A stretch of 64,000 bases of DNA from an uncultured Candidatus Babeliaceae bacterium (GTDB lineage Bacteria > Babelota > Babeliae > Babelales > Babelaceae): contig OY969927.1 of NCBI GenBank assembly GCA_963704655.1, positions 1,152,001-1,216,000 on the forward strand. The letters are read 5' to 3'. The position numbers and the translations under genes were made by a program. The notes beneath the pieces are model-generated. The model saw only the letters and a list, made by a program, of their open reading frames with translations. It was not told where the DNA came from and made no database searches. This document shows positions 39,005 to 54,166 of this stretch, one piece after another; the stretch's first letter is position 1, and every line of letters starts with the position of its first letter.

Positions 39005-39044
39005 AAGCCCCTGTTACTGTTTTCAGTAGCGGGGGCTTTTTTTT
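39005..39044 (+). terminator. Intrinsic terminator overlapping the lgt 3' end
   Basis: AAGCCCCTGTTACTG..CAGTAGCGGGGGCTTTTTTTT. Confidence 0.75.
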
Positions 39045-39832
39045 GCGATTAATTCAGAGAAAAGAATAAGAAGTATACCCGCGCACAGTATCCCAATGCT
39101 TATCCACTGGTGAAAAGAAAGTTCGGATGAATACACAAGTGCATCGGTGCTATTAATAATGCGGTCGCCACGATAAAAATCGACCACAAAGCGTTCAAGA
39201 CTAGAAAATATTAAAAATAAACCAGCCAATGTGCCCGGCTGTAATCTAAAGCGTGCGCAGAGCTGTAATATAATAAAAATTCCCAAAAAGATAAGTGAGC
39301 TATAAAGCTGCGTAGGAATCAGTGGCATGTTTAATGGCGCATGCGAACCTGCGTGCGTATACATAATCGACCATGCCGATGTAGTGGCGCATCCAAAGCA
39401 ACAGCCAGCAAACAAGCAGCCTAAGCGAGCAATTGCTTGTGCCAATGGGATATAAAGTGCCCCTAAATCTAAAATGGGTAATACGGGTATTTTGTGGTAC
39501 CACAAAAATAGTGGAACAAAGATAAGCCCTGCAATAATTGCGCCCAATATAGAAAGTCCGCCGTTCCAGACAGAAACCATTTCAGTTAGAGTGTGGTATG
39601 ATTTCCATTCACTTGCAATATGCAATACCCGAGCGCCGATTATGGCAACAATTACTGTATAAATAATAAGCTTTTCGTAAAGAGCCGAACTTATATACTT
39701 TTTACGCAAGAGGTGATTATAACTTAATGCAATAAAAGCGGTGATTCCCAGCGCAACAAAAACGCCATAAATATGTATTGAAAGTTGGCCGAATAAGTGA
39801 AAAATCTCTGGATTTAAACTAAATGTTAGCAT
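39023..39832 (-). CDS. lgt: Prolipoprotein diacylglyceryl transferase
   Basis: IIGARVLH, WNGGLSILG, RLGCLFAGCCFG, PTQLYS, RFVVDFYRGD. Confidence 0.95.
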   Translation of the reverse strand: MLTFSLNPEIFHLFGQLSIHIYGVFVALGITAFIALSYNHLLRKKYISSALYEKLIIYTVIVAIIGARVLHIASEWKSYHTLTEMVSVWNGGLSILGAIIAGLIFVPLFLWYHKIPVLPILDLGALYIPLAQAIARLGCLFAGCCFGCATTSAWSIMYTHAGSHAPLNMPLIPTQLYSSLIFLGIFIILQLCARFRLQPGTLAGLFLIFSSLERFVVDFYRGDRIINSTDALVYSSELSFHQWISIGILCAGILLILFSELIAKKSPRY

Positions 39833-39857
39833 AAATTACATTTCTAAATTTGGCCGC

Positions 39858-39950
39858 ATGGATTCGACTACGCTCACCACGAGCGGCCTTTAACCCGTGC
39901 ACCCTGAGTGCCCGAAGTAGCGTTAACGCGAAGACGGGTGTATCGAAGGG
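39858..39950. repeat. Inverted dimer of the palindromic repeat; overlaps the mnmG stop codon
   Basis: 93 nt; near copy of 40245-40337. Confidence 0.9.
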
Positions 39951-41869
39951 GCGGCACTAATATTATTTAACTGTTCGCGGCACTTAAAAATCAAAAGGGA
40001 AATTGCTGCAGGCGTCATGCCCTGAATAAGAGCCGCTTGTGCAATGGTTGCCGGTTTTGTTTTTGCAAGTTTTTGCCGTAGTTCAATAGATAACCCAGAA
40101 ATGTCGCTGTAGTCAAGCATTTCTGGAATAATAAGCTCTTTATAATGCTGCATCTTTTCAATCTCACGCTGTTCACGGTGCAAATAGGGCCCATATAAAA
40201 GCTCAGCAAAAATCGACGCCCGTGCGCGTGATGTTAATGCCGCTATGGATTCGACTTCGCTCACCACGAGCGGCCCATTTAACCGTGCACCCTGAGTGTC
40301 CGACGAAGCTTTTAGCAAAGACGGATGTATCGAAGGGTCATATAATCGATCAATAGCTTCATATGCATATGCGCTATCGCCGGTGCCAAGTTTTTGAATA
40401 ATCGTAATATATTCTTTATGTGCTTTTATGCTGTCTGTAACTGCGATAACTGTGTTGTTTTCTGCTTCGATTGCATCATGCATCTCTTTTGATATCAAAT
40501 TAAGTGCATAGGCGCGCTTGTGAAAACGCTTAAAGACATTGTCCTGACGCAGCACAAGGCGACGTTCAGCGCGTGAAGTAAACATGCGATACGGTTCATC
40601 TGCGCCATGTGTGACAAGATCATCGATCATAATGCCGATATAACTTTCATTGCGGTCAAGTACAAATGGTTCTTGATTATGCGCTTTTAAATGCGCATTA
40701 ATGCCCGCAACAATACCTTGACCAGCAGCTTCTTCATAGCCCGTGGTGCCATTAATTTGGCCAGCTAAAAAGAGGCCAGGAACCTTTTTAAGTTCAAGTG
40801 TGTGATGTAACTCTTTTGGTGAAACATAATCATACTCAATAGCATACCCTGGACGTGCTATTTCAACATTTTCAAAACCTTTAATGGTGCGTAAAAATTC
40901 AAGCTGAACCGGTAATGGCAACGATGTTGAAAGGCCATTTGGATAGACTTCATCGCTGCTTGCGCTTTCTGGTTCAACAAAGATATGGTGCGCATCTTTA
41001 TGCGCAAAGCGTGAAATTTTGTCTTCGATAGACGGGCAATAACGTGGCGGTGTGCCCTTAATGTGCCCCGTATAAATAGGTGAATGGTGCCAATTTTTTC
41101 TGATGGCATCATGGGTGTTTTTATTAGTATATGTTACAAAACAGTCCATTTTATGGGTAACTTTATGGGGCGTAAACTCAAAAAGTGCATCAAGTTCGTC
41201 TGACCCTTGGCGCTCCATCTGCGAAAAATCAATACTAGAGCGTATTAATCTTGCAGGTGTTCCTGTTTTGAGCCTGCCCATCGTAAGATTTAAGCTTTTT
41301 AAAAATGCAGGTAAACCTACTGAAGCCTCTTCTGCCTGGCGGCCACCAGAGTAATTAACCTGGCCGGTATGAATTAAGCCATTTAAAAACGTCCCAGTTG
41401 TCAAAATAACCGCTTTTGAGGTGTAAGATGAGCCTTCACGAGTAACTATGCCTATAACCGATCCTTGTTCGTTTAAAAGGCATTTTTCCACCATGGCCAT
41501 ATAGATAGTTAGGTTCGGGGTAGCTTGTAAGTATTTTTGGCTTAATTTATTATATTCAACTTTATCGATCTGGAGCCTTAATCCCTGAACCGCTGGCCCT
41601 TTGCTGGTATTCAGCATTCTGGCCTGAAGATAGGTTTGGGTGCATAATTGTGGCATTAATCCGCCAAGAGCGCTGATCTCAAAGACAATGTGCCCTTTGC
41701 CTATTCCGCCAATGGCAGGATTACAGGGCATATGGCCTATTTTGTCTCTGTTTAGCGTTATAAGCAGGGTTTTTGAGCCCATTCTGGCGGCTGCATACGC
41801 AGCTTCGTTACCAGCATGCCCGGCACCAACGACAATAACGTCAAAATCGAAGTGTTGTGTGTTATTCAT
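39923..41869 (-). CDS. mnmG: tRNA uridine-5-carboxymethylaminomethyl modification enzyme MnmG (GidA)
   Basis: [55 protein letters not shown]. Confidence 0.98.
40245..40337. repeat. Inverted dimer of the palindromic repeat, in frame inside mnmG
   Basis: 93 nt (31 codons); encodes [31 protein letters not shown]. Confidence 0.9.
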
Positions 41870-41916
41870 ATTTTTATACTTGTATATTTTTTAGACGATA
41901 TGAGTTTTTTCACTTT

Positions 41917-41973
41917 CCGTGCACCCTGAGTGTTCTACGTAGCACAAAGTGCGTAGTAGAAAGTATCGAAGGG
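41917..41973 (+). repeat. Palindromic repeat unit in the mnmG leader
   Basis: CCGTGCACCCTGAGTG-[hairpin]-GTATCGAAGGG. Confidence 0.85.
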
Positions 41974-41991
41974 CAAATTGTTTTGGGCTCA

Positions 41992-42081
41992 TTGAATTTA
42001 ATAATTATAAAGTATAACATGAATTTTGTAAGAAATCTGCAAAGAAAAAGGGCGCCCAGTTGTCCTCAAGGCACCCTTTAT
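41992..42081 (-). repeat. Direct repeat (terminator plus promoter), copy 1
   Basis: About 90 nt, matches 43116-43203; contains TGTTATACT on the minus strand. Confidence 0.9.
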
Positions 42082-42102: not shown

Positions 42103-43104
42103 TTAATTTCTTACGTATTGTTTTTCATCAAATTCAGTATTGCCGATTTTGTAGCCTAAGCCTCCCATAATGGTAAGCCAATCGTAATTTTGATAGGAAT
42201 CATCATAACGCGTTGCATTAGAAAAATTAGTTTCAGGAGTGATTTTTGCATTTGTAAGGTCTGTGTTTACTAACCTTGCATTTTCAAAATTTGCACCAGT
42301 AAGATTTGTTTTGGAAAAATTTACGGTTGTAAGGTTAGAATCGCTGAGGTTGGCATAAGATAGGTCTGCACCCTCTAGGCTACAGATACCATAATCATTA
42401 CTAACCCCTCTTAAATCAGCATGTGAAAGATTAACATTTTTCATACTACAAGGATAAAGTTTGGTTAGTTTTGCGCCCACAAGTTGAGCTCCGTCAAATT
42501 TTGCATTTGCAAGCTCTGCGTAGCTAAGGTCTGCGCATGATAGGTTTGCGTTGGTGAAATCTGCAGAGATAAGGTATGCCCCTTTAAAGTTTACAGAAGT
42601 TAAGTTCGCCTTTTTAAAAATTACGCCACAGAGGCTTGCTTTGCTAAAATTTGCCTGTCTAAGATCAACGTTGCTAAGATCTGCTACCATATTGAATGCG
42701 ACACTGTTTGTTGTCCTATCTAAGTACAGTTCTTCTTTTTCAGTTAGAGGATTAATGATTCTTACTATACGGTTATCATTCCAAAGTATAGGCGCATCAA
42801 TTTTATGCAGTATTCTGTTTTGAACATTACTTAAATCGATATTTTTAAGATTTTTTTGACCACTTTTTACGATATCAGTGTTATAGTTCAAAATAAATTT
42901 TTGATGGTTAATGAGTTGTTCTTCTGATTTTTGATCATACCCTGAATCTTTCCACGCCTTCCTATCTTTCTCCCATTGGGGTTTTGTTTCTTCTTCTGTA
43001 TAAGCGACTTTATATCCTAGCGCTCTCCAGGCATCATTGAGTGAAAATGCATTTAGGTATGCTGTTGTCAGGCATAATAATAGTAAAAAATAACGTAATT
43101 TCAT
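42103..43104 (-). CDS. Secreted pentapeptide repeat protein
   Basis: Many A(D/N)L/F-xx repeats; signal peptide. Confidence 0.92.
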   Translation of the reverse strand: MKLRYFLLLLCLTTAYLNAFSLNDAWRALGYKVAYTEEETKPQWEKDRKAWKDSGYDQKSEEQLINHQKFILNYNTDIVKSGQKNLKNIDLSNVQNRILHKIDAPILWNDNRIVRIINPLTEKEELYLDRTTNSVAFNMVADLSNVDLRQANFSKASLCGVIFKKANLTSVNFKGAYLISADFTNANLSCADLSYAELANAKFDGAQLVGAKLTKLYPCSMKNVNLSHADLRGVSNDYGICSLEGADLSYANLSDSNLTTVNFSKTNLTGANFENARLVNTDLTNAKITPETNFSNATRYDDSYQNYDWLTIMGGLGYKIGNTEFDEKQYVRN

Positions 43105-50515: not shown

Positions 50516-50558
50516 CCCTTCGATACGCCGCTCTAGAAGCGGCACTAAGGGTGCACGG
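50516..50558 (-). repeat. Palindromic repeat unit
   Basis: Reverse complement reads CCGTGCACCCTTAGTG-CCGCTTCTAGAGCGGC-GTATCGAAGGG. Confidence 0.85.
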
Positions 50559-54042: not shown

Positions 54043-54058
54043 ACTCTATTTCCAATGT

Positions 54059-54166
54059 CCGCATGGTTCGACTCCGCTCACCACGAGCGGCCAGTCCCGC
54101 TTACAAATTTCTTGTTCTCTCCCTTCCGCTCACACTGAGCGGAGGCTGAAAGCCGAAGTCGAAGTG
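54059..54166. repeat. Inverted dimer of the palindromic repeat inside the ABC operon
   Basis: ATGGTTCGACTCCGCTCACCACGAGCGG and CCGCTCACACTGAGCGGAGGCTGAAAGCCGAAGTCGAAGTG. Confidence 0.85.

Follow-up and report, generated by a model that had tools for sequence, protein, structure and literature searches.

A composite palindromic repeat, probably inserted recently and in frame, in mnmG of an uncultured Dependentiae bacterium

The mnmG (gidA) gene of an uncultured Candidatus Babeliaceae bacterium, a protist-associated member of the Dependentiae, carries two copies of a short composite palindromic repeat, one of them read through inside the gene and the other forming its C-terminus, and a third, partial unit lies in its leader. 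The gene is located in a stretch of 64,000 nucleotides (nt), referred to here as the window, which covers positions 1,152,001-1,216,000 of a single-contig genome of 1,298,077 bp and 38.0% G+C (assembly GCA_963704655.1, contig OY969927.1); coordinates are those of the window unless marked as genome positions. With a probability of roughly 0.88, the copies at mnmG belong to a dispersed composite palindromic repeat that was inserted recently and that resembles the Rickettsia palindromic elements (RPEs) in its habit of entering genes in frame. To our knowledge, selfish DNA read in frame within proteins has so far been regarded as peculiar to Rickettsia, and the movement of these elements has never been settled. 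Here, the same habit is encountered in an intracellular lineage unrelated to Rickettsia, where filled and empty sites can be told apart cleanly among near relatives. Each 93-nt unit joins two distinct modules, termed Y and X, that are also dispersed separately through the genome. The features at the locus are:

39923-41869, minus strand: mnmG (gidA), an intact open reading frame (ORF) of 648 amino acids, from the ORF and its translation.
40241-40337, plus strand: copy B, a Y+X composite within mnmG (Y 40241-40275, X 40283-40337); its minus-strand reading gives residues ~512-544.
39852-39950, plus strand: copy A, the Y+X composite located at the 3' end of mnmG (Y 39852-39888, X 39895-39950).
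41917-41973, plus strand: copy C, an X unit only, in the mnmG leader, 48 nt upstream of the start codon.
39833-39851, minus strand: relic of the native mnmG 3' end, now a non-coding spacer directly upstream of lgt; boundaries approximate.
39023-39832, minus strand: lgt, a prolipoprotein diacylglyceryl transferase-like ORF, named by reading its translation and aligned with relatives.

The encoded protein matches E. coli MnmG structures at E=6e-169 and is 91% identical to MnmG of the closest relative. The two 93-nt copies that the initial annotation had placed at 39858-39950 and 40245-40337 are both present, their cores being identical at 86/94 aligned positions (91%), and they form the closest pair among the genome's eight Y+X composites. 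A local origin is indicated for both, each being the nearest relative of the other. Their description as a single inverted dimer of 93 nt can be kept in part. The name is apt for the architecture, as the two halves have related boxes, but Y and X are two distinct families, each dispersed alone, and the 93 nt mark only the core of elements that span ~40241-40337 and 39852-39950 or slightly more. Similarly, the third unit annotated at 41917 is indeed an X unit (41917-41973), but it sits within a larger leader insertion of ~116 nt (roughly 41880-41995). In the window, the 16-nt box of X occurs four times against 0.10 expected, a count reached in 0/100 shuffles.

Both composites in mnmG share one reading frame, with opposite consequences for the protein. 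The last 28 nt of copy A encode PSIHPSSR followed by the TAA stop codon (39923-39925), as had been annotated, and this TAA lies within the X hairpin loop, whereas the loop variant of copy B reads through; it is this difference in the hairpin loop that makes copy A end the gene and copy B not. One element can accordingly lengthen or end a protein, depending only on its hairpin-loop variant. At the internal site, the net difference is 31 codons with the frame kept, again as annotated. The element itself measures ~97-99 nt and a few target bases were replaced or shared, because its Y flank overlaps a similar native hexamer; the same Y flank recurs in mnmE. At the 3' site, an insertion of ~105-110 nt precedes the native stop by ~30 nt; the native tail persists downstream in diverged form, as a relic that aligns base for base with the last mnmG codons of the closest relative. 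In that relative, the mnmG stop overlaps the lgt start, whereas here copy A separates mnmG from lgt.

Copies A and B are direct repeats with a spacing of 387 nt (129 codons). If they recombined, the result could be an in-frame MnmG that ends at the copy A stop and is devoid of residues ~544-640; no recombined A/B joint is seen in the public-run contigs over this region.

Comparison with relatives points to insertion. Among the 31 genomes searched, this one included, mnmG was found in 28, and 19 orthologues were aligned: four same-genus ones and 15 belonging to further genera or families of the order. Every one of the 19 shows a gap precisely where the insert lies, of 31 columns in the four same-genus orthologues and 26-32 in the others, which is the gap of about 31 residues that the initial annotation had anticipated. 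In the same-genus DNA alignment (four genomes), presence and absence are clean for copies A, B and C. The segment appears to have been inserted in mnmG rather than lost elsewhere. Within the lineage, no repeat-free orthologue has a similar, equally long peptide at this place. E. coli MnmG does possess a native segment of ~24 residues at the insert position, but it is dissimilar and is missing from all 19 relatives; it identifies the site as one where length variation is naturally tolerated, and does not make the insert ancestral. When residues 506-549 were compared with a large protein collection (proteins of 356-1134 amino acids), 12 word-sharing candidates were returned, none at E<=0.01.

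An AlphaFold2 model of MnmG built on 20 sequences (mean predicted local distance difference test score, pLDDT, 83.5; predicted template modelling score, pTM, 0.85) is in keeping with this tolerance. The pLDDT falls below 50 at residues 516-542, corresponding to the insert, and at residues 640-648, corresponding to the new tail. The insert is modelled as a low-confidence loop between helices 499-509 and 547-575, within the C-terminal helical domain. The insert is probably translated and neutral.

A more prosaic source of such a pattern would be an assembly artefact by which repeat copies were misplaced in mnmG, a concern that the initial annotation had raised itself. Short unitigs do end at the Y module, and no contig spans the junction on the left of copy B. 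Nevertheless, public-run contigs cover copy A and both its junctions (39853-40022, 39717-39867, 39882-40032 and 39687-39885) and bridge the right junction of copy B (40244-40481 and 40267-40417), in every case with zero differences. These contigs come from runs of three studies, although one run may be the window's own source sample. No empty-site (joined) form occurs among the public-run contigs, the frame is exactly kept and the genome is one contig; in addition, A and B are not a collapsed duplicate, because eight positions differ between them. Of the alternatives weighed here, misassembly is the one to which we give the least credence.

The repeat is not confined to mnmG. With up to two mismatches, the genome contains 37 copies of the X box and 42 of the Y core, the latter numbering 39 by nhmmer (E<1e-4). 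A generic regular expression for the boxes (91 matches against 24 in the reversed sequence) was too loose for a census, and a self-BLAST census was dominated by the internal repeats of giant fibre genes. Against crude ORF calls (1,258 ORFs covering 88.7% of the genome), 10/37 X and 10/39 Y copies lie wholly inside called ORFs (20/76), and three X and one Y more overlap ORF ends. The modules are thus strongly depleted in coding sequence, a depletion in line with a selection filter, yet many are read through. These figures supply the count of coding and intergenic copies that the initial annotation had called for. Other genes were compared against five relatives (G001, G002, G003, G005 and G018), with the following results:

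mnmE (genome 1022503-1023972): insert of ~25-28 amino acids, a Y+X composite as in mnmG; absent from five of five relatives.
valS: insert of 37 amino acids, a three-module array (111 nt); absent from five of five relatives.
murB: insert of 26 amino acids; absent from five of five relatives.
cca: insert of 29-32 amino acids, a Y+X variant; absent from five of five relatives.
murG: insert of 23 amino acids; absent from G003 and G005, with related module peptides at the same site in G001 and G002.
gatA: an X unit in place of a variable loop of similar length.

The murG peptides of the two same-genus relatives differ from, but are related to, the insert found here, so that this site is either an insertion hotspot or the seat of an older, decaying insert. 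A DAO-like ORF (genome 546834-548030) with an in-frame Y has no close orthologue in the five relatives. Further candidate module-bearing ORFs, listed from this genome alone, are found at genome positions 652604, 955814, 1281839, 259259, 931923 and 865097.

That both partners of the MnmE-MnmG pair carry the same Y+X composite in the same frame could be taken to point to adaptive exaptation, whereby repeat-encoded loops would be kept for a function such as a shared interaction surface of MnmE-MnmG. In mnmE, the composite lies just after the NKSD motif and reads ...PLVVSKVESIAA, and the insert of MnmG falls in its C-terminal helical domain. Such a role is nonetheless improbable, as module inserts also occur in five other, unrelated housekeeping genes, the closest relatives lack them, model confidence over the inserts is low, and no homologous peptide was found among the 356-1134-aa proteins of the large collection. 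Because ~20 in-ORF copies exist, the pairing of MnmE and MnmG is best regarded as a post-hoc coincidence.

Dissection of the modules reveals a simple and flexible design. Module Y comprises ~37 nt, in which a short stem surrounds a conserved loop, and it extends 4-6 nt further than the 93-nt core (CCGCT/GGCCGC before ATGG). Module X comprises 43-58 nt and consists of a left box of 16 nt and a right box of 11 nt with a variable hairpin between them. Reverse-complemented Y shares the box architecture of X, with 9/16 positions of the left box in common by string comparison. In 27/34 X copies, a stem of at least 5 bp abuts the conserved boxes; these stems comprise 19 different arms. The mean stem measures 5.5 bp, as compared to 0.6 in shuffles. 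X carries a covarying central hairpin, and this is a real constraint. Its loops are mostly three-base G-N-A, either GAA or GCA. Three-base G-N-A loops are typical of very stable DNA, rather than RNA, hairpins. Modules nest in each other's hairpin loops and form mixed arrays. At genome 931960-932053, 951396-951474 and 958303-958409, other modules are nested inside the X hairpin loop, and the longer X hairpins look as though a mini-hairpin had been added to a short one, between repeated GAA(G) motifs; the nested mini-hairpins suggest insertion or slippage at hairpin loops. The X units at 41880-41995 and at genome 10345, 170539, 951474, 1151413 and 1202558 each occupy the middle of a larger element, flanked by AT-richer sequences that are inverted repeats in their own right, and the mnmG leader copy is of that type.

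With a covarying hairpin set between conserved boxes, X has the look of a structured nucleic acid, and it might be asked whether the elements are removed after transcription or translation, as a tiny intron or in an intein-like manner, leaving the mature protein unchanged. This is very improbable. Every relative-verified insert keeps the frame and avoids stops, which would be needless if it were spliced out, and the TAA of copy A serves as the stop codon. The loops are mostly of a kind more typical of stable DNA than of RNA hairpins, and the elements match no Rfam family at gathering threshold or at E<=1; in the whole window, likewise, no family reaches its gathering score. A scan for promoters and terminators found neither carried by the elements.

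The distribution of the modules among relatives speaks to their age. In a survey of 41 genomes of the family, this one included, many of which are fragmented with repeats often left unassembled, Y (up to two mismatches) has 34 copies here, 1-6 in five other genomes and none in 35, while X (exact pattern) has 21 copies here, one each in two other genomes and none in 38. X and Y thereby appear to have multiplied in a lineage-specific burst after divergence from the nearest sampled relatives. On a wider scale, the Y core (21 specified bases) is present in 55 stretches of a species-level genome collection, where ~0.3 would be expected by chance. By title, these records belong to Chloroflexota, Methylomirabilis, Lysobacterales, delta-proteobacterial/myxobacterial lineages and Binatia, and also to Planctomycetales, Armatimonadota, Nitrospira, a Patescibacteria member and Dependentiae. 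Ten or more phylum-level groups contain the core with the same stem context, and it often stands in tandem arrays or next to sister modules.

A candidate for the enzyme behind this spread comes from the genome itself, which holds nine mini GIY-YIG ORFs (~100 amino acids) and one of 432 amino acids. Five of the nine mini genes lie between inverted copies of a single module type, with four types represented in all. Inverted Y copies bracket a GIY-YIG gene at genome 767552-767908 and X copies bracket another at 474580-474915, while a third module type flanks the two most similar paralogues and a fourth flanks one more. Both the X-type and the Y-type ORF match Pfam GIY-YIG (E=6e-17 and 1e-14); the nearest solved chains to these nucleases are the UPF0213 proteins 1ywl and 1zg2, and an NCBIfam scan of the mini GIY-YIG nuclease gave nothing above cut-off. 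Copy A shows a 5-bp terminal pairing, and no insertion sequence (IS) with matching ends was identified; the nuclease cassettes end in modules instead. It may be that the solo and composite modules are derivatives of GIY-YIG cassettes that are copied through single-strand hairpin cleavage followed by repair or recombination, a proposal whose chances we place a little short of even. A bolder version, in which each nuclease paralogue would recognise its own module as single-stranded DNA, so that module copying and not a transposase would drive in-frame remodelling of essential proteins, and in which the same partnership could be the engine behind in-frame palindromic elements generally, is doubtful. 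What lends it generality is that the Y core crosses many phyla and that Rickettsia is listed among species rich in such repeats in a recent study (PMC11893778).

Several observations weigh against the account developed so far. Inspection of the mnmG, valS, murB, cca and mnmE sites shows no target-site duplication, and the gatA X unit appears to replace, not add to, a loop of similar length. The ORF calls are crude, and some copies scored as inside ORFs near 5' ends may reflect false N-terminal extensions. Thermodynamic folds of whole composites are unremarkable (z -0.5 to -1), and no public-run contig bridges the left junction of copy B. As for the nucleases, a GIY-YIG profile finds a match near only 1/55 of the cross-phylum Y loci, a 434-aa ORF 1.6 kb away, and near only 2/16 of the X/Y loci in relatives. 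In a relative of the same genus, two inverted Y modules enclose a 155-aa ORF that is not GIY-YIG. Finally, there is no replichore orientation bias (X 22/37 and Y 19/39 in one sense, with replichores defined by skew), although such a bias is predicted by some single-strand mechanisms. The 155-aa cargo ORF weakly resembles nucleotidyltransferase substrate-binding proteins (E=0.007, below cut-off).

Part of this evidence suits passive spread without a dedicated enzyme, by replication slippage at hairpins, gene conversion and illegitimate recombination, with the GIY-YIG genes being no more than preferred landing sites or cargo. The absence of target duplication, the nesting of modules in hairpin loops and their mixed arrays, the inverted Y pair around non-nuclease cargo and the small number of solo copies near nucleases are all in its favour. 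It accounts less readily for five nuclease genes that are each bracketed by one module type, the two most similar sharing a type, or for the clustering of three X copies at one 336-nt gene against ~0.02 expected (32 full copies in 1.3 Mb). Furthermore, published Ssn nucleases cut their own flanking hairpin repeats as single-stranded DNA, as described in PMC11893778. Passive spread is somewhat less probable than not, and we do not favour it over involvement of the nucleases.

For the mnmG copies, the reading as recently inserted, dispersed repeats can be cast as a sequence of events. A non-autonomous, GC-rich Y+X hairpin repeat would have spread through the genome after the split from the nearest sampled relatives, and the copies would still be nearly intact because the burst was recent. 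One copy would have landed in a length-tolerant loop of the MnmG C-terminal helical domain. There its translation would give a flexible loop on the protein surface, and the essential gene would survive because the insert adds a net 31 codons in a stop-free frame. A sister copy, ~30 nt before the native stop, would have replaced the last 8-12 residues, ended the gene and pushed lgt away, and a third X unit would have lengthened the mnmG leader.

If correct, this carries two practical consequences. The candidate cognate enzymes, small GIY-YIG genes with one module type each, make the question of mobilisation testable, and annotators should be aware that repeats may be the source of GC-rich segments in small, AT-rich genomes.

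Elsewhere in the window, two further units of the same modules lie in intergenic DNA:

50516-50558, minus strand (genome 1202516-1202558): X unit, intergenic.
54058-54092, plus strand (genome 1206058-1206092): Y unit, intergenic, followed by more modules.

Upstream of mnmG, a 333-aa ORF at 42103-43104 (minus strand) resembles by eye a secreted pentapeptide-repeat protein. Between it and the leader, at 42039-42081 (minus strand), a GC hairpin followed by a T run gives a weak ctRNA-like Rfam match (24.9 bits against a gathering score of 50), which probably represents no more than a terminator belonging to the upstream gene. A site resembling a promoter (42004-42032, minus strand, by consensus match only) lies upstream of leader copy C.

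How do these modules relate to known repeats? A literature search found no report of in-frame palindromic repeats in Dependentiae and no paper printing the X/Y motif strings, and the Babela and TM6 comparative genomics papers make no mention of palindromes, MITEs (miniature transposable elements with inverted repeats), GIY-YIG, mobile elements or inverted repeats. In fungal and other mitochondria, GC-rich hairpin clusters invade AT-rich compact genomes, sometimes in coding sequence, and GIY-YIG endonuclease genes are also present. These clusters are organellar and are not known to be related in sequence.

The modules share with MITEs (PMC10969869) their small size, their non-autonomous and dispersed nature and an occasional intragenic location with in-frame fusions, but differ in having five filled/empty sites without target duplication and no matching IS element identified. 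They also recall the repetitive extragenic palindromes (REP) and bacterial interspersed mosaic elements (BIME) with their REP-associated tyrosine transposases (RAYT), and the mosaic intergenic arrays of Neisseria, in which an enzyme gene is flanked by its own hairpin repeats and mosaic arrays are formed. The REP/BIME-RAYT enzyme, however, is an HUH transposase and its repeats are essentially extragenic, whereas here the candidate is GIY-YIG and the modules are often read in frame; part of this comparison follows the discussion in PMC11893778.

A closer parallel on the enzymatic side is Ssn with its NTS/SRM repeats (Chenal et al. 2025, PMC11893778), where inverted hairpin-repeat pairs likewise surround a single-domain GIY-YIG gene of ~100 amino acids. 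In that work, NTS/SRM are directional repeats with conserved flanks, number tens to hundreds per genome and cluster around particular genes; symbionts are enriched among the repeat-rich species, and Rickettsia is one of the SRM-rich species. The X/Y boxes differ by eye from the printed NTS consensus, and their conserved boxes flank a variable covarying hairpin or none. Moreover, 26% of X/Y copies lie inside called ORFs compared to 2% for NTS (PMC11893778), and the nuclease described here is a sequence-based candidate, its nearest solved relative being UPF0213 and its Pfam assignment just GIY-YIG.

The closest resemblance in genomic behaviour is to RPE-1 to RPE-10, which are also short dispersed palindromic repeats of a small-genome intracellular bacterium found in frame in unrelated housekeeping genes (as summarised in the review PMC10969869). 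The extra peptide segments that RPEs create were judged compatible with the fold, and no transposase is known for them in that account (Ogata et al. 2000, 2002; PMC10969869). The lineage here is Dependentiae and the motif looks different by eye. The bracketing of mini GIY-YIG genes by module types is a feature not seen reported for RPEs in the accessible parts of PMC10969869. RPEs are single elements of ~100-150 bp (PMC10969869), whereas here modules of 37-58 nt combine into larger units such as the 93-nt Y+X composite and the 111-nt three-module array. The analogy to RPEs drawn by the initial annotation for a different lineage holds all the same, given that copies are found across the genome and are read in frame in further housekeeping genes.

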